A stretch of 64,000 nt of DNA from Escherichia phage vB_EcoM_WL-3, in sequence record MT968995.1; one strand, written 5' to 3'. This document shows positions 1 to 64,000 of the stretch, piece by piece; the first letter of the stretch is position 1; every line of letters begins with the position of its first letter. The notes under the pieces were generated by a model that saw only the letters and a program-made list of their open reading frames with translations, searched no databases and was not told the DNA's origin. The position numbers and the translations under genes were made by a program.

Positions 1-699
1 CTGTCTGGTATTCTGGCTACCGAAATCATGCTGGAAATCAACCGTGAAGTTGTTGATTGGATTAACTACTCAGCTCAGGTTGGTAAATCTGGTATGACCC
101 TGACTCCAGGTTCTAAAGCTGGTGTATTTGACTTCCAGGATCCGATTGATATTCGTGGTGCTCGCTGGGCGGGTGAATCCTTTAAAGCTCTGTTGTTCCA
201 GATTGACAAAGAAGCAGTTGAAATTGCTCGTCAGACCGGTCGTGGTGAAGGTAACTTCATTATCGCTTCCCGTAACGTAGTTAACGTTCTGGCTTCAGTT
301 GATACTGGCATTTCTTATGCTGCACAGGGTCTGGCTACCGGCTTTAACACTGATACTACCAAGTCAGTATTTGCTGGTGTTCTGGGTGGTAAATACCGTG
401 TATATATCGACCAGTATGCTAAACAGGATTATTTCACTGTAGGTTATAAAGGTCCGAACGAAATGGATGCTGGTATTTACTATGCTCCATATGTAGCTCT
501 GACTCCGCTGCGTGGTTCCGATCCGAAGAACTTCCAACCAGTAATGGGATTCAAAACTCGTTACGGTATCGGTATCAACCCATTTGCAGAATCCGCTGCT
601 CAGGCTCCGGCTTCTCGCATCCAGAGCGGTATGCCTTCTATTCTGAATAGCCTTGGTAAAAACGCTTACTTCCGCCGTGTATATGTTAAAGGTATCTAA
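1..699 (+). CDS. 23: Major capsid protein gp23, C-terminal part (5' end lies outside the window)
   Basis: Open frame runs from position 1 to stop at 699; sits immediately upstream of gene 24 as in T4; sequence recognised as gp23 C-terminus. Confidence 0.9.
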   Translation: MSGILATEIMLEINREVVDWINYSAQVGKSGMTLTPGSKAGVFDFQDPIDIRGARWAGESFKALLFQIDKEAVEIARQTGRGEGNFIIASRNVVNVLASVDTGISYAAQGLATGFNTDTTKSVFAGVLGGKYRVYIDQYAKQDYFTVGYKGPNEMDAGIYYAPYVALTPLRGSDPKNFQPVMGFKTRYGIGINPFAESAAQAPASRIQSGMPSILNSLGKNAYFRRVYVKGI

Positions 700-714
700 T
701 CTTTGACGATTTAA

Positions 715-743
715 GGGACCTTCGGGTCCCTTTAGTTGTTTTT
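715..743 (+). terminator. Rho-independent terminator after gene 23
   Basis: GC hairpin gggacc-ttcg-ggtccc followed by a T-rich run. Confidence 0.6.
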
Positions 744-747
744 ATGG

Positions 748-755
748 TATAAATA
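748..755 (+). promoter_or_regulatory. T4-type late promoter (TATAAATA) for gene 24
   Basis: Exact TATAAATA about 28 nt upstream of the gene 24 ATG, with AAGGAAAG RBS at 771-778. Confidence 0.6.
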
Positions 756-782
756 AATCATATAAACCAAAAGGAAAGCGCA

Positions 783-2066: not shown

Positions 2067-2073
2067 AAACAAA

Positions 2074-2096
2074 GGGACCGAAAGGTCCCTTTTTAT
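2074..2096. terminator. Bidirectional hairpin terminator between convergent genes 24 and rnlB
   Basis: gggacc-gaaa-ggtccc hairpin flanked by an A-run and a T-run. Confidence 0.55.
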
Positions 2097-3101
2097 TTAA
2101 CTTACCAATTCAATCCAAGCCGGACGAAGTACATCTTGTACCATTTTAACTAATTCCTTTTTAACCAAAGAAGGATTATCTGCTTGAGTTAGAGTAATAC
2201 CTTCACGAGAAGTTTCTTCCAAAATATCTTGAACAGTTAGTCCCATCACCTTTCCAAAATCCTTCGGACCAATTTCACCAATTTTAGAAATAACGTTATT
2301 TACTCGGTTCAGTGTAACGTAGCAAGCTAAAATTCCCACCAATTTGTTATCAGCTTCTGATAGTTCAACTTTAGCTTTAATAGGCTTATCAGACTTTTTC
2401 TTTTCACTAAATTTGGAATTCTTGCATTTGATGGCTACACGATTTCCATTATGAAGCCAAGAAGGATAACAAGGTTTCAATACATATCCTTCAGCGGTAA
2501 ATACTTCGCCTTTGGCTTCAGCTTTCCAAACACATTTGTTAGCGTCAACTAATCCAGCATGGTCTACTGTAAAATTATAATCTTGGACGACAGAATCTAA
2601 ATCATTTGGCAATTTAATAAGTTCTTCAAATTTACCACGACCTAAAAGTGGAGCCATTTTAAATTTAAATGTATTACAAAATGATTCCATCATATAATCA
2701 TCGACATAAGTCACATCACCACTTTCTGTAGTGACAATAATGTCAAATACATAAAAATCTTTATCGCCATAATCGACATTCTTCTGAATGCCAGGTCCAG
2801 CGAATTCGCCAAAGACTTGATAAGATACAACCGCCGAAGTTTCCATAATATCTTGTACTGCTTTAATAGAATCTTCGTAATTCTTTAGAATAATTTCATG
2901 CCCAAAGAAATCTTCAGCAGGAAGAATCGGTCCAGTACGTTTAGCGCAAGTTACTTTATCACGCTCAATAATCAATGAGAAATTTGTGCCGTGAATCTTT
3001 TCACGAGCTACCCACTCCCCACCAGTCAATCCCAAGCTATAAAGTTTTTCAATGAATTTAGAATTGTAATGATTTTCAAGACTGCTATACTTTTTAAACA
3101 T
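2097..3101 (-). CDS. rnlB: RNA ligase 2 (Rnl2)
   Basis: 334-aa ORF; N-terminal KIHGTN ligase motif I (lysine nucleotidyltransferase); size matches T4 Rnl2. Confidence 0.9.
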
Positions 3102-3110
3102 AATTAATCC

Positions 3111-3389
3111 TCAAAATGTAATTTCTAACCAATCACCATCACGCTGATCACTATTGACTTTAAAGCTAAATCCTTCTTTTCTCAGCCAATCACCAATTTC
3201 TTCAGTAATCAATTTATCGCGAGCAGTGCAATAATAACTAAAATATGTTTTACCTTGTTCAGCTGCTTTATTAGCAAGTTCCGAAAAATCTTTAATAAAA
3301 CACTCTAGTTTAAACTGTTTACTTTTAAGTGCTTTTTCACGTAATTGATTAGCAAAAGATTCATTTTCATAAAGATCATACTGTTCCAT
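3111..3389 (-). CDS. 24.2: Small early protein (24.2 position)
   Basis: 92-aa ORF in the T4 24.2 position. Confidence 0.6.
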   Translation of the reverse strand: MEQYDLYENESFANQLREKALKSKQFKLECFIKDFSELANKAAEQGKTYFSYYCTARDKLITEEIGDWLRKEGFSFKVNSDQRDGDWLEITF

Positions 3390-3591
3390 TTTTCACCTTT
3401 TTATTAATATGTCTTTTTCTATAGACAACTTTTTCTCGAGTCTCAAATTTATTTTTAGCAGTCATAGCTCGAGCCCATAATACAGCCACTTCTTTCGCCT
3501 GTAAGTTCAATTCACGAGCAATTTCAATGAATGACTTTCCAGACTCATGGAGTGTAAACACCACAACCTCAGTTCTCATAATCAATCTCAT
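3376..3591 (-). CDS. 24.3: Small HTH-containing protein (24.3 position)
   Basis: 71-aa ORF; helix-turn-helix-like segment SFIEIARELNLQAKEVAVLWARA. Confidence 0.55.
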   Translation of the reverse strand: MRLIMRTEVVVFTLHESGKSFIEIARELNLQAKEVAVLWARAMTAKNKFETREKVVYRKRHINKKVKNGTV

Positions 3592-3660
3592 GTTATCGAG
3601 TTGGTGCCATTATATACATCGTTTTCTGATTGTGTTTTATTTGCTTTCAAAATGAAGAAA

Positions 3661-3674
3661 GGGGCCGAAGCCCC
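3661..3674 (-). terminator. Hairpin terminator downstream of hoc
   Basis: ggggc-cgaa-gcccc hairpin followed on the - strand by a T-rich run. Confidence 0.45.
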
Positions 3675-3680
3675 TTATGA

Positions 3681-4811
3681 TTATGGATAGGTATAGATGA
3701 TACCAGTTTCTAAAGCAGTTTTATGAATGATGTATCCATTGCGCGATTCTTGAACATCAACTTCTGGATAGTCTTTCATCATCTTCTGAAGAGTGTAACG
3801 ATGCAAGTAGTACTTACTATCTGGGTCGTCAGTTTTCCAATCTTTACCTTCTTCAGTCATTTTTTGGATTTCATCCATAACCCACCAACCGCACCAGATG
3901 TAAGCTGAAGTACGATGTGGAAGAGGATGAACATAAGGCAATTCACCTTCTGGTTCCGGAGCAACTTTATCAGTCACTTGAACTTGACCTGTTGTTTTAA
4001 CTGTTTTGCTATCATAGTCAGTTGCTGTAACGACAGCAGTAACTTCAATAGTTTGACTTCCAACAGATGAGGTATCGACAGTATATACGTTAGTTGACCC
4101 TTCTACAGGAGAAGAATCTTTCTTCCACGAGTAAGTAATTTGTGCTGCGTCAGGTGCGCCAGTAACATTAGCAGTAAATGTAGCCGAAGCATCTTGCTGA
4201 ACGTTAATAGAAGGAGGAGTCAATGCAATCTGTGGATTCATTGTCTTCTTATTAACCGTCAATGATACTTCATTAGAAGTAACTTCCTTTGCATCATAAT
4301 CTGTCGCTGTTACTTGGGCTACGCATTTAATTCCTTTTACTCCACTTGTAGTTGGAGTATAGCTAAATGTAGCGGAAGTTGCTTCACTAACAGGAGAATC
4401 ATCTACATGCCACTGATACGTAGCAGATGCGCCTGATGGTTGAGAAGCTAAAGCAGCAGTAAATTCAACAGGAGTTCCAATCACTCCAGCAGCAGGACTA
4501 TCAGGAGTTACAGCTAAGGTAGTTGTCTGTGTCTTATTTTGAACTGTGATAGTTGTAGAAGCTTCTGCTGTTTCAGCCTCAGCTTCTGGAACTGTGTTTG
4601 TTGCAACTACTTTAATAGTCTTTTGACCGGCAGGTCCTTTTAGTACATAACTAAAAGTTGCTTCAGTTCCATCTTGTGGAACATCGTCTACAGTCCAAGC
4701 ATAGGTAATAGTTCCACCTCCAGTTTGACCACTGGGTGTAGCAGTAAACTGCTGAGTCTGATCGATAACTCCAGTAGGTGTTTTAGGAGTTATATCAACT
4801 GTAAAAGCCAT
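3681..4811 (-). CDS. hoc: Hoc, highly immunogenic outer capsid protein (tandem Ig-like domains)
   Basis: 376-aa ORF; repeated Ig-like segments (TYxW...DSPV motifs); T4 position and size. Confidence 0.9.
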   Translation of the reverse strand: MAFTVDITPKTPTGVIDQTQQFTATPSGQTGGGTITYAWTVDDVPQDGTEATFSYVLKGPAGQKTIKVVATNTVPEAEAETAEASTTITVQNKTQTTTLAVTPDSPAAGVIGTPVEFTAALASQPSGASATYQWHVDDSPVSEATSATFSYTPTTSGVKGIKCVAQVTATDYDAKEVTSNEVSLTVNKKTMNPQIALTPPSINVQQDASATFTANVTGAPDAAQITYSWKKDSSPVEGSTNVYTVDTSSVGSQTIEVTAVVTATDYDSKTVKTTGQVQVTDKVAPEPEGELPYVHPLPHRTSAYIWCGWWVMDEIQKMTEEGKDWKTDDPDSKYYLHRYTLQKMMKDYPEVDVQESRNGYIIHKTALETGIIYTYP

Positions 4812-5551: not shown

Positions 5552-7063
5552 ATGACTGACATTAAAGTACATTTTTATGATTTTAGTCACGTGAGAATTG
5601 ATTGTGAAGAAAGTACATTTCATGAACTCCGTGATTTCTTTAGCTTTGAAGCTGATGGGTATCGTTTTAATCCGAAATACAAATATGGTCACTGGGATGG
5701 ACGAATCCGTCTTTTAGATTATAATCGCCTTCTTCCGTTCGGCTTAGTCGGGCAAATTAAAAAGTTCTGTGATAACTTTGGCTATAAAGCCTGGATTGAC
5801 CCACAAATTAACGAAAAAGAAGAATTATCAAGAAAAGATTTTGATGAATGGCTTTCTAAATTAGAAATCTATTCAGGAAATAAAAGAATTGAACCGCACT
5901 GGTATCAAAAAGATGCAGTGTTCGAAGGATTAGTTAATCGTCGTAGAATTCTTAATCTTCCAACATCCGCAGGTAAATCTTTAATTCAAGCTTTGCTTGC
6001 ACGTTATTATTTGGAAAATTATGAAGGTAAAATTCTTATCATTGTTCCAACAACTGCTCTGACAACTCAGATGGCTGATGACTTTGTTGACTATCGTTTA
6101 TTCAGTCATGCAATGATAAAGAAAATTGGTGGTGGAGCATCAAAAGATGATAAATATAAAAATGATGCACCAGTCGTTGTTGGTACATGGCAAACTGTAG
6201 TAAAACAACCAAAAGAATGGTTCTCACAGTTTGGAATGATGATGAATGATGAATGCCATCTTGCCACAGGAAAAAGTATTTCATCTATCATATCAGGTTT
6301 AAATAACTGCATGTTCAAATTTGGTCTATCAGGTTCATTACGTGATGGCAAAGCTAATATCATGCAGTATGTTGGAATGTTTGGTGAAATATTTAAGCCA
6401 GTAACGACTTCTAAATTAATGGAAGATGGACAAGTAACTGAGTTAAAAATTAATAGTATTTTTCTTCGCTATCCTGATGAGTTCACTACTAAATTAAAGG
6501 GAAAAACTTACCAAGAAGAAATAAAAATTATTACTGGGCTCAGTAAAAGAAATAAATGGATCGCTAAATTAGCTATTAAGCTTGCGCAAAAAGATGAAAA
6601 CGCTTTTGTCATGTTTAAGCATGTATCACATGGTAAAGCTATTTTCGATTTAATTAAAAATGAATACGATAAAGTTTATTACGTATCAGGAGAAGTTGAT
6701 ACTGAAACGCGCAATGTAATGAAAACCTTAGCTGAAAACGGTAAAGGAATAATTATAGTAGCTAGTTATGGTGTATTTTCTACTGGTATTTCAGTTAAAA
6801 ATCTGCATCACGTTGTTTTAGCGCACGGCGTTAAATCTAAAATTATTGTATTGCAAACAATAGGTCGTGTATTACGTAAGCATGGTTCTAAAACAATCGC
6901 AACGGTCTGGGACCTCATTGATGATTGCGGTGTTAAGCCAAAATCTGCTAATACGAAAAAGAAATACGTTCATTTGAACTATCTTTTAAAACACGGCATT
7001 GATCGTATTCAGCGCTACGCAGATGAAAAATTTAATTACGTAATGAAAACAGTTAATTTATAA
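5552..7063 (+). CDS. uvsW: UvsW DNA/RNA helicase (SF2)
   Basis: 503-aa ORF; Walker A-like LPTSAGKS and DEAD-box-like MMNDECH motifs; T4 position. Confidence 0.9.
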   Translation: MTDIKVHFYDFSHVRIDCEESTFHELRDFFSFEADGYRFNPKYKYGHWDGRIRLLDYNRLLPFGLVGQIKKFCDNFGYKAWIDPQINEKEELSRKDFDEWLSKLEIYSGNKRIEPHWYQKDAVFEGLVNRRRILNLPTSAGKSLIQALLARYYLENYEGKILIIVPTTALTTQMADDFVDYRLFSHAMIKKIGGGASKDDKYKNDAPVVVGTWQTVVKQPKEWFSQFGMMMNDECHLATGKSISSIISGLNNCMFKFGLSGSLRDGKANIMQYVGMFGEIFKPVTTSKLMEDGQVTELKINSIFLRYPDEFTTKLKGKTYQEEIKIITGLSKRNKWIAKLAIKLAQKDENAFVMFKHVSHGKAIFDLIKNEYDKVYYVSGEVDTETRNVMKTLAENGKGIIIVASYGVFSTGISVKNLHHVVLAHGVKSKIIVLQTIGRVLRKHGSKTIATVWDLIDDCGVKPKSANTKKKYVHLNYLLKHGIDRIQRYADEKFNYVMKTVNL

Positions 7064-7078
7064 GGGCTTCGGCCCTTT
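7064..7078 (+). terminator. Hairpin after uvsW (weak terminator / intercistronic structure)
   Basis: gggc-ttcg-gccc hairpin immediately 3' of the uvsW stop; short T-run. Confidence 0.4.
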
Positions 7079-7088
7079 GGAGAAAAAG

Positions 7089-7319
7089 ATGTTACTAGAA
7101 TTTAAACAATTTCTTTATGAAGCTTCTATTGATGAATTCATGGGTAAAATTGCCTCTTGCCAAACATTAGAAGGTCTAGAAGAACTTGAAGCTTATTATA
7201 AGAAAAGAGTTAAAGAAACTGAATTAAAAGATACTGATGACATCTCAGTTAGAGATGCTTTGGCAGGAAAAAGAGCTGAATTAGAAGATTCAGACGATGA
7301 AGTAGAAGAAAGCTTTTAA
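7089..7319 (+). CDS. uvsW.1: UvsW.1 small acidic protein
   Basis: 76 aa from ATG 7089 with GGAG RBS; the ORF-track start at 7077 is a TTG. Confidence 0.75.
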   Translation: MLLEFKQFLYEASIDEFMGKIASCQTLEGLEELEAYYKKRVKETELKDTDDISVRDALAGKRAELEDSDDEVEESF

Positions 7320-15916: not shown

Positions 15917-15969
15917 CCTCATGTTATGTCAGTAAGATTATTATAACACAATACGAGGGACTTGTAAAC
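15917..15969 (-). promoter_or_regulatory. T4-type early promoter cassette upstream of alt.-3
   Basis: On the - strand: GTTTAC (-35) then TTATAAT (-10); near-identical copy at 31688-31740 upstream of alc. Confidence 0.5.
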
Positions 15970-18026
15970 TACATCTTGAACTTTTTAGACATTCCGTTGA
16001 TGTTAACCAAAGAAGCTAAGATTTGAGAAACTTCGTTTTCCTCTTCTTTTGATTCTTCTACAAGGAATTGATTAAACCCAGCCATTGGACGAACTTCACC
16101 AGTTTCCATCAGATGATCGCCATCATATACCGATTCTTCTAATTGTTCAGAAGGAGGAACGATTGTACCTTCGATTAAATACTTGTTATAAGCAGTTTCT
16201 TTCATCATGTACGTGCTCACTTTATTAATCTTCAGCAAAATTCCACGTGGTAAAATAACTTCAGCTTCTGACGTAAATCCTGATAAATGACCCGGAACGA
16301 TAACTTTGATTCGCTCAGCTCCTTTAATTACCATACCCACGCTAGTTTCAGCATCTTCATTCGCATAAGCAGAATGACTGCCCATATGCATCAAATCTTC
16401 TGCGTCAATTGAACCTTCTCCTTCACCAGAAAATACTGCACTGGAATCATCTAGAGCCATATAGTTTTTACCATACTCACCGAAGATATTTGGTTTAAGC
16501 GATGTGGATACGAAGTTCTTAAAATAGAACATTTTATTTTCAATATTATGACGTAAAGTTTTAAAGGTAACTTCTTGGCCACGGTAAAGCGTAGTTCCTG
16601 GAGGAAGAACTGATCCTTTGGCAAAAGCAGAATCCATCGTCTCGATGTGTTTAATAGCTCGTTCCATATATTCTTCACGAGTAGAATCCGGTTTACCTAA
16701 AAGGAACGAGTTCATTTCAACATATGAATCTGCGCAATAATCTTCAATTACATCAGACTCAGCCCGAGTTAATCCTTTTGGGGGTACTTCAGTACTTGCA
16801 TATTCATACGCTTGAGAAGCAGACTCATTAATCAATTTATAAATGCCATTCATGACAAATTGAATAATAGCTACCTTTTCATCTGGCGTGGCTTTAGAAC
16901 CTTTAACTAAATCATTGACAATTTTCTTAATAACATCAAAGCTATTAGAAATATTAATGTCAGCAAGATCGCTTAAAATTTTATCAGTTTTATAATCAAA
17001 AAATTCTTTATTCTTTAAATATTCTTGAGAACCTTGATGTGTTATATCGCTCTGCAGTCTGATAGACGGATCACGTAAACGTGCATGGGCCAATGCAATA
17101 TGATTTCGGAAGCTTTTTAGTTCATAATCACTAGATTTAAAACGAGAAGCACTCCTCATACCACCGATAGCTCCTTTGCCGAAGTTTGAACCAATCTGAA
17201 TAACGCCAGAGTTCATTGGTCCTTCTGCTTTATATACCGGAACTTTAGATTCAAACTCTTGATATTTCTTAGCAGCGAAACTATCGCCCTGAAGTGAAGC
17301 ATCGACAGTAGAGTATTGAGCTTGTGCTGCTAATCGACGACTAATTTTAGTTTTCTGAATAACAGCTTGATCCGTGCGCTTATCATTTTCTAAAGCAATA
17401 GAAGCGGCAACAGCAACAGCTTTAGGAACAGCATTACCTGTTTTAACGTCTACATAAACATCACCAACCTTTGATTCAACTTTTGTGAATAACTCAGTTG
17501 AAATAGGAGGTACACCTGGAATGTCTTCTAAATTGGCATTTTTACGGTAAACCATAATATATGCATACTTTTTATCGTAATCCCAGATTTCCTTTAAAAG
17601 AACATATCGACCTGCTCCTTTAGTACGTACTAAACGGTCAGCAATAACTTGAATTTGTCGAGCTGCGCCATTTGTTTTACTCTTTAGTACGCGGAACAGG
17701 CATGCGTCAATTTTATACTGTTTCATTGTTTGAAGAGCAGTATCAAAAACCGCATTAATAACACCAATTGGATTTCCACCCAAGTTTTTAAGTTTAACTA
17801 ATGATAGTTTCTCATTGACACCTATCATTACGATATGCATCATTTTATCGCCTGGCTTAACGTTTTTATTTGTATCACCGCCAGAGGTGTATGTGCAAAA
17901 TCTAAATCCAGGAAGCACGCTTTCTTCACCGGCTTGAATAGCAAAAATTTGAGGTATTTTATGCTTAGGATTTAAGTTAACAACCGGCGCCGAAGCGCCG
18001 TCAAATAATTCTGTAATAAGTTCCAT
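15969..18026 (-). CDS. Alt-family ADP-ribosyltransferase paralog
   Basis: 685-aa ORF; N-terminus MELITELFD shared with Alt; C-terminal ART motifs YRGQ, FVSTSL, EAEVILP. Confidence 0.8.
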   Translation of the reverse strand: MELITELFDGASAPVVNLNPKHKIPQIFAIQAGEESVLPGFRFCTYTSGGDTNKNVKPGDKMMHIVMIGVNEKLSLVKLKNLGGNPIGVINAVFDTALQTMKQYKIDACLFRVLKSKTNGAARQIQVIADRLVRTKGAGRYVLLKEIWDYDKKYAYIMVYRKNANLEDIPGVPPISTELFTKVESKVGDVYVDVKTGNAVPKAVAVAASIALENDKRTDQAVIQKTKISRRLAAQAQYSTVDASLQGDSFAAKKYQEFESKVPVYKAEGPMNSGVIQIGSNFGKGAIGGMRSASRFKSSDYELKSFRNHIALAHARLRDPSIRLQSDITHQGSQEYLKNKEFFDYKTDKILSDLADINISNSFDVIKKIVNDLVKGSKATPDEKVAIIQFVMNGIYKLINESASQAYEYASTEVPPKGLTRAESDVIEDYCADSYVEMNSFLLGKPDSTREEYMERAIKHIETMDSAFAKGSVLPPGTTLYRGQEVTFKTLRHNIENKMFYFKNFVSTSLKPNIFGEYGKNYMALDDSSAVFSGEGEGSIDAEDLMHMGSHSAYANEDAETSVGMVIKGAERIKVIVPGHLSGFTSEAEVILPRGILLKINKVSTYMMKETAYNKYLIEGTIVPPSEQLEESVYDGDHLMETGEVRPMAGFNQFLVEESKEEENEVSQILASLVNINGMSKKFKM

Positions 18027-18029
18027 GAT

Positions 18030-20126
18030 TTATCCTTGAACGAACTTGTAAGGCATGTTTGTAATATCTATGCAAGACGCAATAATTCCGAGAGATGATT
18101 CTGCTTTCTGTTTAACATTTGATGAAACAAATGATGCAAAGTCAACTCTGTCTTCTATTTCAATATCACCTGTCATTGCAACTACTTCACCAGTTTCCAT
18201 TAAATGGTCTCCATCATAAATTACTGATTCGGTGAGTTCTTCTGTAGTCATAACTTCAGATTGAATGAGTTTTGTATTATTAGATGTTGTTCCGTCATTA
18301 TTAGAAGCATCAGTTATTTTATTAACTTTGACCATCAATCCGCGCGGTAGAATAACTTCAGCTTCTGTTGCTATTCCGAGACTTCCTGGATATACAACAT
18401 TAACTTTATGAGCTCCATCAATTGCCCATCCTATTTGAACTTTAACGTATTCAGGATTTTCTTTATACGCTCTTATTTCGTTTGGATTAATAGTTATTCC
18501 TTCTTCATTTTTATCAACTGTCAATTCATTACGAGCTTCTGGTTCTAAAAGACCAATACCAGCATGTGTAATTCCAAAACGTCCAAAAATGATAGGAGTT
18601 AAAGAAGTAGATACAAAATTTCTGAAATAGAACACTTTATTTTTAACTAGTGCTTCGTATATAGGAGCAGTCATACTTTGAGCACGATAAACTGTAATGC
18701 CTTCTGGTATACGGTCACCATTTTCAAAAGCTGAATCTAAGTTATTTATAGCAGATTCAATTTCTTTTTCACTCATTACATCATATCGTTCTGGATTGTA
18801 ACGACCCAAAAGAAGATTATTGATGTCAGTATATCCTGAACCACAATACTCTCTAATGCCGCGCTTTTGTGATGGAGTATATTTAGAACCATCACGGGCA
18901 ATAGTAATATCAATCATTGGACCTGCACCAATTCCAGAAAAACTATAAATCATTCGTTTGAGGAATTTAGTTTTTGCTGCGTTCCAGGAATTTTTAGTTA
19001 TTTCTTCCCAGACTTCATCTGGCTGTCCTTTACGGGTTTTATTATGTTTATCAAGCCAAGTATCTTTATATTCTTCAAAGAATTTATTAACAGCTGCTGC
19101 GTATTTCTCTAAACATTTTATTGAAGTAGTTGGTTCATTTTTAATCGCATTAAGAATTACATCTTTAATTTTTTCAGAAACTTCATTAACCTCACTTTTT
19201 GAAAAGAATTTATAGTCATAGTGAAGTTCATCTGCGGTTCCTTCGGCAATGATTTTTGCTGCCTTAGTTTTAGAAGCTAATGAATTAATTCCAAGCTTCA
19301 TTTCTTCTGCTTCGGGAATTAAAGGAGCTGTAGCAGGTTTATTGAAATTAGCTGCAGTAGATTCATACTTCTGGAATAATTCGCTTTCAAATCTAGAAGA
19401 TTCTAATGATTGACTTTGCGCAATTGCTCTACGGGAAATTTTAACTTTAACAATAACAGCTTGGTCAGAACGTTTATCATTTTCTTGTGCAATAGATGCT
19501 GCAATTGCCTCATTTTTAGTTACTTGAGCTCCAGTATCTTTATTGATATAAACATCGCCGACTTTCGATTCAACTTTAGTAAAGAGCTCGGTACTAATTT
19601 CCGGAACTCCTGGAATGTCTTCTAGTGATACATTTTTGCGATGTATAAGAATATATGCATACTTTTTATCGTAATCCCAGAGTTCCTTAAGAAGGACGTA
19701 TCTGCCACCTGAACGACTACGAATAAGTCTATCAGCAATAACTTGAATTTGTCGAGCTTGACCAGCAGTTTTAGACTTAAGAATACGGAGCATACAGGCA
19801 TCAATTTTATACTGACGCATCGTCTGCATTGCAACAGTAAAAACTGAATTGATATAATTAATTGGGCTTGGACCGAGACCTTTTAATTTAGCAATTGAAC
19901 CTTTAGCAGTTAATGTAAAAGGAACAATATGCATCATTTTATCGCCCATTTTTAAATCGCGATTAGTATCACCTCCAGATGTATAGGTACATAAACGAAA
20001 GCCTGGTTGTTCAATTGCGTCATCGACATGAACTGAAAAAATTTGTGGTATTTTCTTCTTTGGATTTAAGTTTGTAATCGGAAGAGTAGTATCTTCGTCA
20101 AATAATTCTGTAATGAGTTCCATCAT
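18030..20126 (-). CDS. alt: Alt, ADP-ribosyltransferase packaged in the head
   Basis: 698-aa ORF (alternative ATG at 20123); motifs YRAQ, FVSTSL, EAEVILP; T4 position next to gene 30. Confidence 0.85.
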   Translation of the reverse strand: MMELITELFDEDTTLPITNLNPKKKIPQIFSVHVDDAIEQPGFRLCTYTSGGDTNRDLKMGDKMMHIVPFTLTAKGSIAKLKGLGPSPINYINSVFTVAMQTMRQYKIDACMLRILKSKTAGQARQIQVIADRLIRSRSGGRYVLLKELWDYDKKYAYILIHRKNVSLEDIPGVPEISTELFTKVESKVGDVYINKDTGAQVTKNEAIAASIAQENDKRSDQAVIVKVKISRRAIAQSQSLESSRFESELFQKYESTAANFNKPATAPLIPEAEEMKLGINSLASKTKAAKIIAEGTADELHYDYKFFSKSEVNEVSEKIKDVILNAIKNEPTTSIKCLEKYAAAVNKFFEEYKDTWLDKHNKTRKGQPDEVWEEITKNSWNAAKTKFLKRMIYSFSGIGAGPMIDITIARDGSKYTPSQKRGIREYCGSGYTDINNLLLGRYNPERYDVMSEKEIESAINNLDSAFENGDRIPEGITVYRAQSMTAPIYEALVKNKVFYFRNFVSTSLTPIIFGRFGITHAGIGLLEPEARNELTVDKNEEGITINPNEIRAYKENPEYVKVQIGWAIDGAHKVNVVYPGSLGIATEAEVILPRGLMVKVNKITDASNNDGTTSNNTKLIQSEVMTTEELTESVIYDGDHLMETGEVVAMTGDIEIEDRVDFASFVSSNVKQKAESSLGIIASCIDITNMPYKFVQG

Positions 20127-37722: not shown

Positions 37723-38738
37723 CATTATGTTCAGATAAGGTCGTTAATCTTATCCCGGAATTATATCCAGCTGCATGTCACCATACAGATCAGACTATAT
37801 CTCCATCTTGATGAAGCAAGATGTCTATCGTTTCGAGTCACTTGACCCTACTCCCCAAAGGGATAGTCGTTAGGCATTTATGTAGAACCAATTCCATTTA
37901 TCAGATTTTACACGATAAGTAACTAATCCAGACGAAATTTTAAAATGTCTAGCTGCATCTGCTGCGCATTCAAAAATAATCCCGTCGCATGAAATCTTTT
38001 TAATATTACTAGGCTTTTTGCCTTTCATCTTTTCTGATATTTTAGATTTAGTTTTGTCCGAATGCTTATGATTAAAGAATGAATTATTTTCACCTGAACG
38101 ATTTCTGCATTTACTACAAGTATAAGCAGAAGTTTGTATACGAACACCGCACTTACAAAATTTGTGTTTTTCTGGATTCCATCGTCCGTTTTTACTTCCG
38201 GGTTTACCGTAAAGAGCTTTCCGAGCATCAAGGCCAAGCTTAAGCATCTTAGCTTTAACAGTTTCAGAGCGTTTCTTAATAATTTCTTCTTTTAATGGAT
38301 GTACAGAATATGTATCACCAAACGTTGCATCAGCAATATTATATCCATTAATTTTAGAATTAAGCTCTTTAATCCAAAAATTTTCTCGTTCAATAATCAA
38401 ATCTTTCTCATATGGAATTTCTTCCAAAATAGAGCATTCAAATACATTACCGTGTTTGTTAAAAGACCTTTGAAGTTTTATAGAAGAATGGCATCCTTTT
38501 TCTAAGTCTTTAAAATGCCTCTTCCATCTCTTTTCAAAATCTTTAGCACTTCCTACATATACTTTATTGTTTAAAGTATTTTTAATCTGATAAATTCCAC
38601 TTTTCATAAATACCTCTTTAAATATAGAAGTATTTATTAAAGGGTAGTCCTACAATTTAGCACGGGATTGTCTACTAGAGAGGTTCCCCGTTTAGATAGA
38701 TTACAAGTATAAGTCACCTTATACTCAGGCCTCAATTA
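37723..38738 (-). mobile_element. Group I self-splicing intron in td (1016 nt) carrying the I-TevI ORF
   Basis: Exon 1 ends in T (…TTGGGT); intron starts TAATTGAGGCCTGAGTATAAGG and ends ATG (terminal G); length 1016 nt; excision joins a 286-codon TS frame. Confidence 0.9.
37870..38607 (-). CDS. I-TevI: I-TevI GIY-YIG homing endonuclease (intron-encoded)
   Basis: 245-aa ORF inside the intron; N-terminal GIYQI...VYVGSA GIY-YIG motif; C-terminal zinc finger CKCG...CSKC. Confidence 0.9.
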   Translation of the reverse strand: MKSGIYQIKNTLNNKVYVGSAKDFEKRWKRHFKDLEKGCHSSIKLQRSFNKHGNVFECSILEEIPYEKDLIIERENFWIKELNSKINGYNIADATFGDTYSVHPLKEEIIKKRSETVKAKMLKLGLDARKALYGKPGSKNGRWNPEKHKFCKCGVRIQTSAYTCSKCRNRSGENNSFFNHKHSDKTKSKISEKMKGKKPSNIKKISCDGIIFECAADAARHFKISSGLVTYRVKSDKWNWFYINA

Positions 38739-45212: not shown

Positions 45213-45220
45213 TATAAATA
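45213..45220 (+). promoter_or_regulatory. Late promoter (TATAAATA) for gene 34
   Basis: Exact TATAAATA 35 nt upstream of the gene 34 ATG. Confidence 0.6.
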
Positions 45221-45254: not shown

Positions 45255-48200
45255 ATGGCCGAGATTAAAAGAAAGTTCAGAGCAGAAGACGGTCTGGACG
45301 CAGGTGGCGATAAAATAATCAACGTAGCTTTAGCTGATCGTACCGTAGGAACTGACGGTGTTAACGTTGATTACTTAATTCAAGAAAACACAGTTCAACA
45401 ATATGATCCAACTCGTGGATATTTAAAAGATTTTGTAATCATTTATAATAATCGTTTTTGGGCAGCAACGGATAATATTCCAAAACCTGCTGGAAGTTTT
45501 AATAGAATTCGTTGGAAAGCATTACGTACTGATGCCGTATATACAACCGTATCATCTGGACCATATCAATTAAAATCCGGAGAAGCAATTTCAGTAGATA
45601 CATCAGTTGGTAATGACATTGAGTTTAATTTACCACCTTCTCCGCTTGATGGAGAAACCGTAATAATTCAAGATATTGGTGGAAAACCTGGTATAAATCA
45701 GGTTAAAATAAATTCTTCAAATCAGAGTATTGTTAATTTTAGAGGTGAACAAGTACGTTCAGTTCTAATGACTCATCCAAAGTCACAGATGATATTCATT
45801 TTTAATAATCGTTTGTGGCAAATGTATGCTGCTGATTATAGCAGAGAAGCTGCGATTGTTACTCCATCAACTGCATATCAAGCACAATCTAATGATTTTA
45901 TCGTGCGTAGATTTACTTCCGCTGCGCCGATTAATATTAAACTTCCGAGATTTGCTAATCATGGCGATATTATTAATTCGTGCGTAGATTTACTTCCGCT
46001 GCGCCGATTAATATTAAACTTCCGAGATTTGCTAATCATGGCGATATTATTAATTTCGTTGATTTAGATAAATTAAATCCACTTTATCATACAATTGTCA
46101 CAACATATGATGAAACAACTTCAGTACAAGAAGTTGGAACTCATTCTATTGAAGGCCGTACATCAATTGACGGTTTCTTGATGTTTGATGATAATGAAAA
46201 ATTATGGAGACTGTTTGACGGGGATAGTAAAGCACGTTTACGCATTATAACAACTAATTCTAATATTCGTCCAAATGAAGAAGTTATGGTATTTGGCGCG
46301 AATAACGGAACAGCCCAAACAATTGAACTTCAACTTCCAACCGATATTTCCATTGGTGATACTGTTAAAATTTCCATGAATTACATGAGAAAAGGACAAA
46401 CAGTTAAAATCAAAGCTGCCGGTGAAGATAAAATTGCTTCTTCAGTTCAATTGCTGCAATTCCCAAAACGCTCAGAATATCCACCACCTGAAGCTGAATG
46501 GGTGACTGTCCAAGAATTAGTTTTCAATGGTGAAACTAATTATGTTCCGGTTTTACAACTTGCTTATATAGAAGATTCTGACGGAAAATACTGGGTTGTA
46601 CAACAAAACGTTCCAACGGTTGAAAGAGTCGATTCTTTAAATAATTCTACTAGAGCAAGATTAGGCGTAATAGCTTTAGCTACACAAGCTCAAGCTAACG
46701 TCGATTTAGAAAATTCTCCGCAAAAAGAATTAGCAATTACACCAGAAACATTAGCTAACCGTACTGCTACAGAAACTCGTAGAGGTATCGCAAGAATAGC
46801 AACTACTGCTCAAGTGAATCAGAACACCACATTCTCTTTTGCTGATGACCTTATCATCACTCCTAAAAAGCTGAATGAAAGAACTGCTACAGAAACTCGT
46901 AGAGGTGTAGCTGAAATTGCTACGCAGCAGGAAACTAATACAGGTACTGATGATACTACAATCATCACTCCTAAAAAGCTTCAAGCTCGACAAGGTTCTG
47001 AATCATTATCTGGTATTGTAACCTTTGTATCTACTGCGGGAGCTACTCCAGCTTCTAGTCGCGAATTAAATGGTACAAATGTTTATAATAAAAACACTAA
47101 TAATTTAGTTGTTTCGCCTAAAGCTTTGGATCAGTATAAAGCTACTCCAACACAACAAGGTGCAGTAATTTTAGCAGTTGAAAGTGAAGTAATTGCTGGA
47201 CAAAGCCAAGAAGGATGGGCAAATGCGGTTGTAACGCCAGAAACGTTACATAAAAAGACATCAACTGATGGAAGAATTGGTTTAATTGAGATTGCTACGC
47301 AAAGTGAAGTTAATACAGGAACTGATTATACTCGCGCAGTCACTCCTAAAACTTTAAATGACCGTAAAGCAACTGAAAGTTTAACTGGTATAGCTGAAAT
47401 TGCTACGCAAGTTGAATTCGACGCAGGCGTCGACGATACTCGTATCTCTACACCATTAAAAATTAAAACCAGATTTAATAGTACTGATCGTACTTCTGTT
47501 GTTGCTCTGTCTGGATTAGTTGAATCAGGAACTCTCTGGGACCATTATACCCTTAATATTCTTGAAGCAAATGAGACACAACGTGGTACACTTCGTGTAG
47601 CTACACAAGTTGAAGCTGCTGCAGGAACATTGGATAATGTTCTAATAACTCCTAAAAAGCTTTTAGGTACTAAATCTACTGAAGCGCAGGAAGGTGTTAT
47701 TAAAGTTGCAACTCGGTCTGAAACTGTAGCTGGAACGTCAGCAAATACTGCTGTATCTCCAAAAAATTTAAAATGGATTGTGCAGAGTGAACCTACTTGG
47801 GCAGCTACTACTGCGATAAGAGGTTTTGTTAAAACCTCATCCGGTTCAATTACATTCGTTGGTAATGATACAGCTGGTTCTACGCAGGACTTAGAACTAT
47901 ATGAGAAAAATAACTATGCAGTATCACCATATGAATTAAACCGCGTATTAGCAAATTATTTGCCGTTAAAAGCAAAAGCTGTAGATAGTAATTTATTAGA
48001 TGGTTTAGATTCACTCCAGTTCATTCGTAGGGATATTGCGCAGACGGTTAATGGTTCACTAACCTTAACACAACAAACGAATCTGAGTGCCCCTCTTGTA
48101 TCATCTAGTACTGCTACGTTTGGTGGATCAGTTTCGGCAAATAGTACATTAACTATTTCTAATACTGGAACGGCAACTCGTCTTATTTTTGAAAAAGGGC

Positions 48201-49204
48201 CTCAAACTGGGACGAACCCAGCTCAAACGATGACAGTCAGAGTGTGGGGAAATCAATTCAGCAGTGAATCGGACACAACACGTTCTACTGTATTTGAAGT
48301 TAGTGATGAAACGTCTAGTCACTTTTATTCTCAGCGCAATAAAGCTGGTAATATAACATTTAATATCAATGGTACAGTAACACCGATAAATGTGAATGCT
48401 TCAGGAACATTGAATGCGAATGGCGTTGCAACATTCGGTAGTTCAGTTACTGCTAATGGCGAATTTATCAGTAAATCGTCGAATGCTTTTAGAGCAATAA
48501 ATGGTGATTATGGATTCTTTATTCGTAATGATGGTGCTAACACCTATTTTATGCTTACTGCATCTGGTGATCAGACCGGTGGATTTAATGGATTACGTCC
48601 TTTATCTATTAATAATGCATCTGGTCAAGTAACGATTGGTGAAAGCTTAATCATTGCCAAAGGTGCTACTATAAGTTCAGGTGGTTTAACTGTTAACTCG
48701 AGAATTCGTTCTCAGGGTACTAAAACCTCTGATTTATATACCCGTGCGCCAACATCTGATACTGTAGGATTCTGGTCAATCGATATTAATGATTCAGCCA
48801 CTTATAACCAGTTCCCGGGTTATTTTAAAATGGTTGAAAAAACTAATGAAGTGACTGGACTTCCATACTTAGAACGTGGCGAAGAAGTTAAATCTCCCGG
48901 TACATTGACTCAGTTTGGTAACACACTTGATTCGCTTTACCAAGATTGGATTACTTATCCAACTACCCCAGAAGCGCGCACCACTCGCTGGACACGCACA
49001 TGGCAGAAAACCAAAAACTCTTGGTCAAGTTTTGTTCAGGTATTTGATGGGGGTAACCCTCCTCAACCTTCGGATATAGGAGCGATCCCATCTGATAACG
49101 GAATAATAGGTAATCTTACTATTCGTGATTTCTTGCGAATTGGTAATGTTCGCATTATTCCTGACCCAGTGAATAAAACTGTTAAATTTGAGTGGATTGA
49201 ATAA
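45255..49204 (+). pseudogene. 34: Gene 34 long tail fibre proximal subunit, interrupted by a frameshifting 77-bp tandem duplication
   Basis: Two ORFs (45255-46067 and 45980-49204) share RFTSAAPINIKLPRFANHGDIIN; deleting one 77-bp copy gives a single 3873-nt ORF. Confidence 0.85.
45899..46055 (+). repeat. Perfect tandem direct repeat, 2 copies of 77 bp
   Basis: Sequence at 45901-45977 is identical to 45978-46054; period 77 is not a multiple of 3. Confidence 0.95.
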
Positions 49205-51049: not shown

Positions 51050-53998
51050 ATGGCTACTTTAAAACAAATACAATTTAAAAGAAGCAAAACTGCAGGTCAA
51101 CGTCCTGCTGCTTCAGTATTAGCCGAAGGTGAATTGGCTATAAACTTAAAAGATAAAACAATTTTCACAAAAGATGACTCAGGTAGTGTTATAGAATTAG
51201 GTTTAAAATATGGAGGAACTATAAATGGGTCTTTAGAGGTTACAGAAAATATAACTGGAACTTTAATTGGAAATTCTAGCACAGCTACTAAATTGCAAAC
51301 ACCTAGGAAAATTAATGGTATATCTTTTGATGGGTCAAAGGACATTACCTTAACTCCATCTGACATAAATGTCAATAGCACAACATTTATAAAAAATAAT
51401 GGCGAATTACCTACTGATGCTAATTTAGATACGTATGGGCCCATTGAAGAATATCTTGGTGTTTGGTCGAAATCTACTTCAACAAATGCGCAACCAGCAA
51501 ATAAATTCCCAGAAGAAAATGCCGTAGGTGTACTAGAAGTGTTTGTGGCCGGCCAATTTGCTGGCACTCAGCGTTATACTGTAAGATCTGGTAACGTCTA
51601 TATTCGTTCCTTATCTGCTAAATGGAATGGCGTCGATGGTCCATGGGGTGTGTGGCGTAATGTTCAAGCGTCAACTCGTCCACTTTCACAAACGATTGAC
51701 CTTGATAGCTTGGGAGAATTAGAACATTGTGGCTTATGGCGAAACAGTTCAAGCGCAATCGCATCATTTGATCGCCATTATCCAGAAGAAGGATCAGCCG
51801 CACAAGGATTTTTAGAAATATTTGAAGGTGGTTTATACACGAGAACTCAGCGTTATACTACCCGCATGGGTATGGTTTATACTCGTTGTCTCGCTGCTGC
51901 ATGGGATGCTAGTGCACCTAAGTGGGAGGAATGGAAGCAGGTTGGTCATGGCACACCAGCGACTTTCTATGATGGAGATCTGAATGATTTTAAAACTCCC
52001 GGGTTATATAATATTTTAGGCACTGATGCCGTTATTAACTGTCCTACAGGTGAAGGTTTGCCGACTGTTATTGTTGGTTTGCTGGAAGTTAAACAGCGTG
52101 CTTCTGGCGGTGCTATTTTCCAACGTTTCACTACCGCAGGAACGGGTGCAACTACTCGCGATCGTATTTTTGAGCGTGCATATACTGGTGGTGCGTGGGG
52201 TGCATGGAACGAAGTATATACATCTTATTCTCTGCCAATTACTTTGGGTATGGGTGGTATTAAAGCTCAATTAGCGGAGTTAGATTGGCAAACCTTTGAT
52301 TTTGTCCCTGGTAGTATGTTTAGTGTTCCTTTGAACAAAATAAAGAATATGCCAGCAAATATGGATTGGGGCACGATTGATGGAAACCTGGTTATGTTTT
52401 CTGTCGGTCCTAGCGAACATACCGGAACGGGTCGAACTGTTCAAGTGTGGCGCGGTACTGTATCTCAGGCGAACTATCGTTATTTCGTTGTTCGTATCGC
52501 TGGTAATCCAGGAAGTAGGACTAATACTTGTCGTCGTGTTGTTCTTGAAGACGGATCACATACTTGGACTGCTCAACAAAACTTTAGGGGATTGCTGAAT
52601 ATCACTGCTGCTGTTAATCTTGGTGCTAATCAGAAAATTTCACTTGCTCCAGGAGCATATATTCAAGCCCCTGCTAGCGGTTCTGGTTCTAATACTTACG
52701 CAAATCAGAATACTACCATTGCGCCATTATATCAGGCTATTGACGATTCAAATAAAAACCAGTTTGCGCCAATTGTTAAACAGAAAAACACTGTAACAAA
52801 TATTACTATGGCTTCTGGTATGGATATTGCTAGTTCAGAATATCGTATCGTTGCTCAGGGTGATTTATCCGCTACTGGAACTACAGCCACTGAATTAGCT
52901 ACATGGCGTTTCTTGCCGTCTGGCCGATTCATGTCACAAAGCCGAGTTTATGCTGGCGCAGCATTCTTGAACACTGATGGTAACATTGCTGGTTCAATCT
53001 GGAAGAAATACAACGATGCAACCAATTTAGATGCTGCCTTGAATACTCGCCTAGGTAAAGGCGGTGATACGATGACAGGTCGGTTAACAATCAATGCACC
53101 TAATGATTCTATTGTATTATCAACGACTGCTAGTAATTCTTTGCATATTCGTGGTGACATAGACGGGACTGGTAACTGGTATATTGGTAAGGGTGGTGCT
53201 GATAATTCGCTAGCATTTTATAGCTATGCTTCTCAGGCGGCAGTACATATCACAAACAGTGGTGAGATTGCGTTAAAACCGCAAAATACCGTAATGGTTA
53301 ACGTTAACCGTGACCGTGTACACATTAACGGTTCTGGATGGATTGCTAGACAACCGGGTGATTGGGGCAACCAATGGCGAGTAGAAGCTCCATTATTCGT
53401 TGATCATGGTTATGTTTCACAGGATTGTTATTATCCTATTCTTAAAGCAAGAAGCGTTATAACCAATCAAGGATATAGCACCGCTGTTGACTTTGGTATG
53501 CGTCGTATTCCATCACAGTGGGGGCAAGCAATCATTCGTGTCGGATCCACGGAGGCTTCTCCTGATGCTGGACACCCACAAGCTGTGTTTGAATTCCATC
53601 ATGATGGATTCTTTTATACACCAGGAAATGGTAGCTTTAGCGATGTGTATATTCGTTCTGACTCCCGTCTCAAGATTAATAAAGAAGAATTAGAATATGG
53701 AGCGGTCGAAAAAGTTTGCCGACTGAAAGTTTATATTTACGATAAAGTTAAGTCTATTAAAGACCGTAGTGTTATTAAACGTGAAGTTGGTATTATTGCT
53801 CAGGACCTTGAAAAGGAATTACCGGAAGCTGTATCTAAAGTTGAAGTTGATGGATCTGATGTTCTGACAATTTCTAACTCTGCTGTGAATGCTCTTTTAA
53901 TTAAGGCTATTCAGGAAATGAGTGAAGAAATTAAAGAATTGAAAACGCCTTTCTTCACTAAAATTGCTCGCAAAATTAGTAATTATTTTAAATTCTAA
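51050..53998 (+). CDS. 37: gp37 long tail fibre distal subunit with C-terminal intramolecular-chaperone-like domain
   Basis: 982-aa ORF; last ~113 aa (from SDSRLK, nt 53657) resemble the autocleaving C-terminal chaperone domain of phage fibres. Confidence 0.85.
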
Positions 53999-54004
53999 CA
54001 ACAA

Positions 54005-54020
54005 GGGGCTTTGCCCCTTT
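54005..54020 (+). terminator. Hairpin after gene 37
   Basis: ggggc-ttt-gcccc hairpin and TTT immediately before the gene 38 RBS. Confidence 0.4.
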
Positions 54021-54030
54021 GGAGAAAATT

Positions 54031-54831
54031 ATGGCAGTAGTTGGTGTTCCCGGTTGGATTGGAAGTTCATCTGTAAATGAAACAGGACAACGATGGATGA
54101 GTCAAGCGGCTGGTCAATTAAGATTGGGTGTTCCTTGCTGGATGAGCCAATTCGCCGGACGCTCAAGAGAGATTATTCATACCGTAACAGCAAACCATAA
54201 CTTTAATGGTCAATGGTTCCGCGACCGTTGCTTTGAAGCTGGCGGTGCACCCATTGTATTCAATATTGTTGGTGATATCGTTTCTTATTCTAAAGATGTG
54301 CCACTTTTCTTTATGTATGGGGATACGCCTAATGAATATGTTGTTCTTAATATTCATGGCGGTGTTCATATGTGGGGTCGTGGTGGTAATGGTGGATACA
54401 CTCACTCAGGAGGCGACGGTAACGGTACACAAGGCGGTCATGTTATTCAAAATGATATCGGTGGACGGCTTCGTATTTGGAACTACGGTGTTATAGCTGC
54501 TGGTGGTGGTGGTGGTGGCGGTATTGCATATCGTCCACACTCAGGGGCAAACTGGCAAGATATCGGTGGCGGCGGCGGTCGACCTTTCGGTGGGGCTGGC
54601 GGTGGCGGTTATTCCGGTGGTGCTGCTTCGTATGAAGGTCCGGGTGGTGGTTATGACTATGGTAACGCACACTCCGGCGCTGGTGGTAATGCTGGTGCTG
54701 CTGGTCAGAATGCATGGTCTGACGGCGGTAAAGTTCTTAAAGTTGGTGTTGGTGGTGCGTCTGGTCATGCAGTGTTTGGGTCTTCTCCAACTTGGGGTGT
54801 TGTTGGAACAATTTACGGACCAAGAGTATAA
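54031..54831 (+). CDS. 38: gp38 receptor-recognising adhesin, T2/T6 type with glycine-rich motifs
   Basis: 266 aa from ATG 54031 (GGAG RBS); poly-Gly blocks GGGGGGG separated by variable segments; the ORF-track start at 54019 is a TTG. Confidence 0.8.
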
Positions 54832-58522: not shown

Positions 58523-59847
58523 TTAATTTCCTCTAAATCTTTAGTGTATTCTGTAACTACATCAGTAGTTTTCCAATATTCGTTTTCTTCTTTCTTAGCT
58601 TTAGCTTCTTCAGCAAGTTTCTTTGCTTCATCAGAAGTCATATGAAAAATATTCATTCCGACTAGTTTATCAACATAAGAAGAATACATCTCAATTTTAG
58701 AAAGTTCTTCGGTCAGTTCTTTACGAGTTTTACCCTGCACAACAATTTCACCTGAAATTACTTTCTTAATGAAATGCGCCTTGGCAAAGGCTAAACGAAA
58801 TGCTGATTCAGTTTCTTTGATTTTGTTATCAATTCGCTTTTGGACATAAGTTTTACGAACTTCAACGAAGTCTTTGATTAAATCAACTACGTTATCGTAA
58901 ACTTGTAACTTTCCTTTCTCGTTGATGACTGTAATATTTTGGGAACGACGCTCAATCAACCCGAAGTCTTTCATGATTTTTGCATGGCGTTCTTCTTCGT
59001 TATCACTCAAAGAGTATTCTTTGCGGAATTTAACTTTAAAGCCAAAGCCATGCTCACCACAAGCATCATCCCATGTAATGAAGCCTTTATCTTCAAGCGG
59101 GTCTAAGATTTTACTCACATAAGTTTCACGATCATACTTATACGGAATCTCAGTGATATTCATTTGAGTTCGTGAAGTAAACTTGTACGTTCCACGAATT
59201 TCATATTGACCATCAATTTCAACGACTTCACCGCGAAATTCTGGGAATTCTACCTTCGGTTTAGTTACTTTCTTTCCTTGAAGAGCTTGTAGTACAGCTT
59301 TCTTGACAGAAGAAACACTATGAGGAAGAATGTAAGTTGCATAACCAGTTGCAATACCGGAAACACCATTAAGAAGAACAGTAGGAATAATAGGCAAATA
59401 GAAAGCAGGCGGAATGTGTTCTTTATCTTGATGTACCGGAGCATATTCAGTATCTTTATATACGTTATAGAAATTTTTACTTACACGAGCAAAAATATAA
59501 CGACTTGCCGCTGCTTTTTGAACGGTACGAGAACCAAAGTTTCCTTGACCATCTAACAAAGGAAAGTTATTATTCCAAGTGTTAGCCATCAAAGCCCCCG
59601 CATCTTGCGCAGAGTTTTCACCATGATGATATCCAAGGTCAGCTACACCACCTGCAATAGAAGCAAGTTTGTGAAACTTATCTTTATTTCCTCGCGCCAA
59701 ATCAAGAGCTCGAGCGATAACAAATCGTTGAACTGGCTTAAATCCATCAATCATATTTGGAATAGCACGATTTTCAACCGTGTACATAGCATAAGCCAAT
59801 GCTTCATTATCAATGATACTTTTTAAATCGCGATTATTCAGTTGCAT
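58519..59847 (-). CDS. 52: gp52 topoisomerase II medium subunit
   Basis: 442-aa ORF; T4 size and position. Confidence 0.9.
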   Translation of the reverse strand: MQLNNRDLKSIIDNEALAYAMYTVENRAIPNMIDGFKPVQRFVIARALDLARGNKDKFHKLASIAGGVADLGYHHGENSAQDAGALMANTWNNNFPLLDGQGNFGSRTVQKAAASRYIFARVSKNFYNVYKDTEYAPVHQDKEHIPPAFYLPIIPTVLLNGVSGIATGYATYILPHSVSSVKKAVLQALQGKKVTKPKVEFPEFRGEVVEIDGQYEIRGTYKFTSRTQMNITEIPYKYDRETYVSKILDPLEDKGFITWDDACGEHGFGFKVKFRKEYSLSDNEEERHAKIMKDFGLIERRSQNITVINEKGKLQVYDNVVDLIKDFVEVRKTYVQKRIDNKIKETESAFRLAFAKAHFIKKVISGEIVVQGKTRKELTEELSKIEMYSSYVDKLVGMNIFHMTSDEAKKLAEEAKAKKEENEYWKTTDVVTEYTKDLEEIK

Positions 59848-59992: not shown

Positions 59993-60140
59993 TAGATAAC
60001 AACGCAAATGTTAAATATGCACACATACCCTGAGCTAAAGCTTGCGAAAACACACTGCTAGCATCAATACAAATAGTTAAAACACATGCTACTATCCAAC
60101 AAATAAATGAAATAACTCCTAATAGTTTTGCAATATTCAT
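59985..60140 (-). CDS. ac: Small hydrophobic membrane protein, possibly Ac
   Basis: 51-aa ORF found by hand (MNIAKLLGVISFICWIVACVLTICIDASS...); size and position fit T4 ac, assignment from memory only. Confidence 0.4.
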   Translation of the reverse strand: MNIAKLLGVISFICWIVACVLTICIDASSVFSQALAQGMCAYLTFALLSND

Positions 60141-63061: not shown

Positions 63062-64000
63062 TTATTTAAATTGTTCAGTAACGTCTTCAACTACTTCGTA
63101 TTGGCAGGTACGCATTTTAGCATCATTGTAATCAATCGGAATTGATACTACATCGCGAGGATGTACTTTAACTTTTACAACTCGACTGGTTGAACTGCCA
63201 AAGTGACGAATATAAGATTTAGAACACACATGCAGACCACGAGAACAAGTTTGTGTATCATCGTCATTCACACGAGTACGTGGCATTTTAACTACTTTAC
63301 CAGGGCTGTTATCAAAAGTATTTGAATGACAGTCAAAGTAATTGCTGCGAACTACTTTCCAAGCATAGAAGTAACCATCTTCTGTAATTTCAATATCGTT
63401 TGCTACCAAGAAATCAAAGAGTCGAGATACTGCTTTTTGGCTTGGGTTTTCCAACAGATTTTCCAAGAACGGAAAATAAAATTCAAAGTTTTCACCTTTT
63501 TCCATCGAATCGAGAATACGATCAACTAAACCAGACCGCAATTCAATATTTTGATAGAACAGGCTTCCACCTTCAATTCGAACATCACCGGAAATATATT
63601 TTTCAACAGCGCGACGAACATTAATTTTTTGTGCCGCTTCTTCCAATTTATCTGCAACAAGCAGATTAAGAATTTCCTGGAAGTTTGAATGAGTATTAGG
63701 AGTTGCGTTATAAGTTACGCCGTCAACAGTAATTGAAATGAATTTTTTAGATGCATTCCAAATAATGTCAGATTTAGCAACTGGAGCAATAGCTACATCA
63801 CTCTTAGCTTCAACTGTAATGTCACCGCTAATGGTAACTTTGGAACGCTCAGCTTCTTCAGCATTTTTCAAAACACGACGGATTGTGTCAACCGATACAC
63901 CTTGCCAATCAGCCAATTCCTGCTGAGTATAATTACCACTTGAATACAGTTTGACAATTTCAGCTTGTTCGTTTTTGGTCAGGCATTTAATGTTGTACAT
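63062..64000 (-). CDS. rIIB: rIIB membrane-associated protein (complete; ATG is at the last window bases)
   Basis: 312-aa ORF beginning MYNIKCLTKNEQ...; terminal gene of the T4 map. Confidence 0.9.
   Translation of the reverse strand: MYNIKCLTKNEQAEIVKLYSSGNYTQQELADWQGVSVDTIRRVLKNAEEAERSKVTISGDITVEAKSDVAIAPVAKSDIIWNASKKFISITVDGVTYNATPNTHSNFQEILNLLVADKLEEAAQKINVRRAVEKYISGDVRIEGGSLFYQNIELRSGLVDRILDSMEKGENFEFYFPFLENLLENPSQKAVSRLFDFLVANDIEITEDGYFYAWKVVRSNYFDCHSNTFDNSPGKVVKMPRTRVNDDDTQTCSRGLHVCSKSYIRHFGSSTSRVVKVKVHPRDVVSIPIDYNDAKMRTCQYEVVEDVTEQFK

Follow-up and report, generated by a model that had tools for sequence, protein, structure and literature searches.

A perfect 77-bp tandem repeat in gene 34 of the Escherichia phage vB_EcoM_WL-3 record: a probable assembly and curation artefact

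Phages of the T4 type package their DNA by the headful mechanism and possess circularly permuted genomes. For SPAdes, the default final k values are 55, 77 and 127, 77 being the largest default k for reads of approximately 150 nt. Repeats of 77 bp at contig ends have been documented where SPAdes was used with default parameters (PMC9409062), and identical 77-bp (or 127-bp) ends on the SPAdes contigs of circularly permuted phages need to be trimmed (PMC9409062, PMC5923482). The Phage Annotation Guide (PMC8785237) makes no mention of k-mer overlap, PMC8172020 contains nothing specific to it, and the "77 bp" of PMC11019937 refers to inverted terminal repeats, which are unrelated.

The first and last 400 bases were compared in eight related Tequatrovirus genomes, deposited in evidently unrotated form. 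An exact identity of prefix and suffix was found over 77 bp in Escherichia phage Killian (OQ446694.1), which is nearest to the window in the 5' part of gene 34, and over 127 bp in Escherichia phage ZCEC14 (OP168898.1), while the other six records had none; the resulting base rate (2/8) comes from a small, non-random sample. These two cases indicate that untrimmed SPAdes overlaps do enter public Tequatrovirus records. The "complete genomes" of Killian and ZCEC14 are probably too long by 77 bp and 127 bp, respectively.

The locus described here is part of the record of Escherichia phage vB_EcoM_WL-3 (MT968995.1), of which a stretch of 64,000 nucleotides (the window) was analysed. Like a SPAdes end overlap, the repeat in this window is exact, has the length of a default final k and belongs to a circularly permuted T4-like genome; unlike such an overlap, its copies adjoin inside the record instead of lying at its two ends. 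An internal position is the expected outcome when a SPAdes contig is circularised and rotated without trimming. By analogy, the Killian sequence, if rotated in that manner, would recreate a 77-bp internal duplication exactly.

Gene 34 as written, as repaired and in relatives

Searches with the T4 proteins (tblastn) identified the window as DNA of a T4-like phage (Tequatrovirus). It starts in the middle of gene 23 and agrees with T4 in gene order from there to rIIB. The interrupted gene, which specifies the proximal subunit of the long tail fibre (gp34), sits between rnh and gene 35 and has the following features:

45213..45220, plus strand: T4 late-promoter consensus TATAAATA, upstream of gene 34 (sequence match only)
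45255..46067, plus strand: ORF 1, 270 codons, specifying gp34 residues 1-241, then 29 residues out of frame before a TAG stop
45901..45977, plus strand: copy 1 of the 77-nt unit, genuine sequence of gene 34 (codons 216-241)
45977..45978, no strand assigned: novel junction …ATTATTAAT/TCGTGCG…, putative join of the original assembler contig ends
45978..46054, plus strand: copy 2 of the 77-nt unit, an exact repeat of copy 1
45980..49204, plus strand: ORF 2, 1074 codons from a GTG, specifying gp34 residues ~217-1290 in the -1 (+2) frame

A GGAG-type ribosome-binding sequence, likewise no more than a motif match, lies between the late-promoter consensus and the ATG at 45255.

The original prediction reported an exact 77-bp repeat at 45901-45977 and 45978-46054, and both direct sequence comparison and Tandem Repeats Finder bear this out. 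The copies follow one another directly and agree at every position, and the match continues rightwards for 1 nt (T at 46055) and leftwards for none; the program returned a period of 77, 2.0 copies, 100% matches, 0 indels and a score of 310. This is the sole perfect tandem array that Tandem Repeats Finder located in the 64 kb, and chance is a negligible source of an exact tandem repeat of 77 nt. A weak period-39 array, returned by the same program, is a by-product of the 77-nt duplication and of faint internal similarity, not a separate feature. The sequence across the junction of the copies reads …GGCGATATTATTAAT/TCGTGCGTAGATT…, and the deletion of copy 1 or of copy 2 leaves the same resulting sequence.

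Since 77 is not divisible by 3, the duplication looks like a frameshift in gene 34. The coordinates of the ORFs agree with the earlier statements that the frame opening at 45255 runs for 270 codons to a stop at 46067 and that the rest of the gene forms a separate ORF (45980-49204) in the +2 frame, which was found with its 1074 codons. ORF 2 contains two C-terminal domains specific to gp34, Pfam Gp34_trimer (PF21446; E = 7.8e-35) and Gp34_2nd (PF21560; E = 1.2e-37), both matches exceeding the curated cut-off. When one 77-nt copy was deleted in silico, a gene of 3873 nt with a single stop was obtained, specifying a gp34 of 1290 amino acids; this restoration had been anticipated, and the product proved to be collinear from end to end with the gp34 of relatives. 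The repaired gene aligns over positions 1-3873 with gene 34 of 11 loci, and the repaired protein is identical to that of the nearest relatives' contigs at 1279 of 1289 residues and to T4 gp34 at 1176 of 1289, with one 1-aa gap.

The likeness to T4 gp34 includes the synteny rnh-34-35-36-37, the Gp34_trimer and Gp34_2nd domains and, after repair, full-length collinearity; the differences are that the gene in the window is split as written and that the repaired protein has one extra proline. At residues ~382-384 (window ~46478-46486) the repaired gp34 reads PPP, against PP in T4 and the two nearest relatives, the result of a 3-nt insertion which is the only length difference in the gene.

The original prediction proposed a comparison with T4-like genomes at this site, and a single copy was found in every locus so compared: the 77-nt unit occurs once in T4 and once in each of ten loci on contigs encoding an identical gp35, all of which specify an intact gp34 of 1289 amino acids. 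In six of the related contigs the unit and its flanks are identical to those of the window, again as a single copy. The 5' part of gene 34 has matches in approximately 500 phage records, and the alignments to the best of these fall into two pieces, which points to a single copy in those records. A probe across the novel junction had no one-piece match in any phage record, and searches of IMG/VR, JGI metagenome contigs and GTDB genome contigs did not find the junction 40-mer. The exact products of ORF 1 (270 amino acids) and ORF 2 (1074 amino acids) had no record in the protein collection; the exact repaired gp34, and gp37, were also not on record in protein searches. Identical gp35 and gp38 proteins were found only in related but different phages, with gp34 intact in all of them.

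Translation across the overlap

Two overlapping ORFs in different frames, both belonging to one protein family, recall programmed recoding such as the -1 frameshift of tail assembly chaperones or the translational bypassing for which T4 gene 60 is the precedent. By the same token the two ORFs of the window might yield one functional protein, through a -1 frameshift, a 77-nt ribosome hop or the assembly of two polypeptides. A hop would restore the wild-type protein, every codon of copy 1 having an identical landing codon 77 nt further on. Unlike the chaperone frameshift and the gene 60 bypass, however, the arrangement in the window comes without slippery site, stimulatory structure, take-off stop or conservation. 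In the 91-nt overlap (45977-46067) the slippery heptamer pattern X XXY YYZ has only half-matches, and no run of 6 or more identical bases occurs. The downstream RNA fold is unremarkable (MFE -25.8 kcal/mol, z = -1.57, with 17 of 200 shuffles as good), no terminator was found, and no Shine-Dalgarno sequence was found upstream of the GTG at 45980. In copy 1 no stop follows a potential take-off codon, frame 0 being open to 46065, past copy 2. Furthermore, the relatives compared do not have the two-frame arrangement, their gene 34 being a single frame of 1289 amino acids, and the split would separate the baseplate-binding domain from the shaft. The original prediction saw nothing in support of recoding, and the search for heptamers, homopolymers, Shine-Dalgarno sequences and notable RNA structure ended in the same way; recoding is regarded as extremely improbable.

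Other features of the window

A split uvsW (5558-7316, plus strand) raised the suspicion of a general quality problem in the record. This was rejected: close relatives share the uvsW/uvsW.1 layout, matching it in one piece, and annotate two CDSs, both as helicases, where the T4 record (NC_000866.4) annotates one uvsW gene of 587 amino acids. At the junction of uvsW and uvsW.1 (~7063-7095) are found a TAA, a GC hairpin (GGGCTTCGGCCC), GGAG and an ATG. Much the same hairpin and Shine-Dalgarno cassette precedes gp38 at 54005-54033 (GGGGCTTTGCCCC TTTGGAGAAAATTATG; compare GGGCTTCGGCCC TTTGGAGAAAAAGATG at 7063-7095 before uvsW.1), and the two may represent a shared intercistronic regulatory or shuffling module.

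Two full-length alt-like genes lie in tandem on the minus strand, at 15969-18026 (685 amino acids) and 18030-20126 (698 amino acids). The initial part of the first shares 95-98% identity with T4 alt.-1/alt.-2, described in the T4 record as remnants of an old alt duplication; from its sequence, the phage seems to keep intact an alt paralogue that has decayed in T4.

The receptor-binding module (51050-54831, plus strand) is unlike that of T4. The resemblance of gp37 (982 amino acids) to T4 gp37 is confined to the first 64 residues, and gp38 (266 amino acids) is of the glycine-rich type that adjoins gp37 in relatives, where it is assigned to Pfam GP38. T4 gp38 had no match in the window, and an identical gp38 is encoded on a few metagenome contigs. 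For the homing-endonuclease genes segE, segG, mobE and I-TevIII of T4, and for nrdB.1, the window also gave no match; the only match of segD is a weak one and falls on the I-TevI gene, which is present at ~37873-38607. Imperfect tandem arrays occur inside gene 52 (58599-58638; period 21, 1.9 copies) and inside the ac gene (60047-60105; period 31, 1.9 copies).

Origin of the second copy

The end of the window bears on the history of the record:

63062..64000, minus strand: rIIB, with its ATG (complement) falling on the final base of the window; the T4 reference ends likewise

The window ends in …TTGTACAT and the T4 reference (NC_000866) in …TTGTACAT, at the same base, and the rIIB products of the two are identical at 306 of 312 residues. 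Judged by these ends, the window represents the terminal 64 kb of a record that has been rotated to follow the T4 convention. In a record so rotated the old contig ends lie inside, and a join of contig ends is thus present somewhere in it. The best match to the window in the phage collection reaches ~96% identity over 25 kb; with no record exceeding approximately that value over such a length, the sequence is a de novo mosaic and not a reference-guided consensus. Given also that the start of an assembler contig is arbitrary, the original ends must have been joined and the circle re-opened at rIIA/rIIB. We infer that this join is located exactly at 45977/45978, and that one of the two 77-nt copies is redundant, being the untrimmed contig-end overlap of k = 77.

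The duplication could have come about as follows. A circularly permuted genome would give a cyclic path in the de Bruijn graph, output as a linear contig of which the first and last k bases are identical, k being 77 under the SPAdes default with ~150-nt reads. Re-cutting the sequence to the start and end of the T4 reference would have joined the old contig ends, and if the depositor did so without dropping the redundant 77 bases, the outcome would be a perfect tandem duplication of 77 bp at an arbitrary position, here codons 216-241 of gene 34. Merging two graph-adjacent contigs that overlap by k would be another route to the same effect. With such an origin one expects that the copies are exactly identical, have a period of 77 and lie at an arbitrary position, that microhomology does not exceed chance, that relatives lack the repeat and that the record is rotated. 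The length equals the SPAdes default k, the copies are 100% identical and adjacent, the record is rotated, and repair restores collinearity. Some 85 T4 proteins have homologues in the window, and by comparison with close relatives gene 34 is the only one of these genes to be disrupted.

A fixed duplication would have a price for the phage. The duplicated unit falls in the N-terminal globular part of gp34; in T4 this domain attaches the fibre to the baseplate protein gp9, and an infectious particle requires at least three long fibres (PMC3004832). A lesion that hits the gp9-binding domain is therefore unlikely in a plaque-purified, amplified phage. The alternative is that a genuine 77-bp tandem duplication, arising by replication slippage or illegitimate recombination, became fixed in the sequenced stock, which would then be a tail-fibre-defective mutant surviving by complementation, a baseplate bypass mutation or frequent reversion. 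The given sequence does contain the repeat, and tandem duplications and duplication-type frameshifts are known to arise spontaneously in T4 (rII duplications, Streisinger-type mutants). The present case resembles these in being a direct tandem repeat that shifts the frame of a gene of a T4-type phage. The classical T4 duplications, however, were genetically selected, usually have homology at their end points or are kb-sized, and are unstable, whereas here the junction has a microhomology of 1 nt (T), the gene is needed for infectivity and the length is that of an assembler parameter. Such a microhomology is at the level of chance; it may speak against a genuine duplication, and illegitimate recombination would be compatible with it. 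The requirement of gp34 for infectivity counts against a genuine duplication, as does the junction's not having been seen in phage records or the three contig collections. The agreement in length with the SPAdes default k would then be fortuitous, with a chance of ~1% or less for an arbitrary length. Moreover, to argue from T4 genetics, homologous recombination would excise a direct repeat of 77 bp and revertants would be strongly selected.

Another record provides a point on the other side. Gene 34 of Shigella phage sb3 (PQ666541.1, 151879-155748), annotated there as two CDSs, is interrupted at codon 151 by an in-frame TAA, where the window has a lysine codon. Lesions of gene 34 do appear in records, as errors or as real changes, and the nonsense codon of sb3 counts to that extent against an artefact and in favour of a genuine duplication. 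Even so, a genuine duplication fixed in the stock is considered highly improbable, and it is just as doubtful that the duplication is real in the majority of propagating genomes and that a T4-like phage can live with a 77-bp duplication that shifts the frame of gene 34. If it were true, tolerance might be achieved via high-frequency recombinational reversion together with complementation, a baseplate independent of tail fibres, or ribosome hopping between identical codons 77 nt apart.

The duplication might instead have been a minority variant of a mixed lysate, written into the final sequence by the assembler or a consensus step. High-titre lysates hold defective genomes, which survive by complementation during mixed infection. 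The coincidence of length with the SPAdes k is needed equally by this explanation, though, and minor paths are normally collapsed or popped as a bubble, not reported; in addition, nothing else in the window points to heterogeneity or low quality. There is, in our estimation, very little chance that a minority variant is the source.

Mutant, slippage variant and artefact were put forward without ranking in the original prediction. The artefact gains in strength, being strongly favoured by the length equal to the SPAdes default k together with the rotation to the T4 convention, while a mutant and a mixed population have become improbable. The case is a circumstantial one, and with a probability of roughly 0.9 the second 77-bp copy is an artefact of assembly and curation that does not belong to the phage genome. 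The duplication is thus very probably not a real biological feature, and the phage itself very probably has one intact gp34 of 1290 amino acids.

The deposited sequence probably exceeds the true length by 77 bp, and the correction would be to delete these and annotate one gp34 of 1290 amino acids. If left uncorrected, gene 34 would be annotated as two fragments or as a pseudogene, and automated screens could misread the phage as tail-fibre defective, with effects on the choice of phage-therapy candidates, catalogues of receptor-binding proteins and counts of pseudogenes. As a rule for scanning genomes, a perfect tandem duplication with a length of precisely 55, 77, 99 or 127 bp inside a phage or plasmid record that has been rotated is to be presumed an untrimmed assembler overlap. 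The finding matters for data quality; its biological weight is small, gene 34 of this phage being almost certainly normal.
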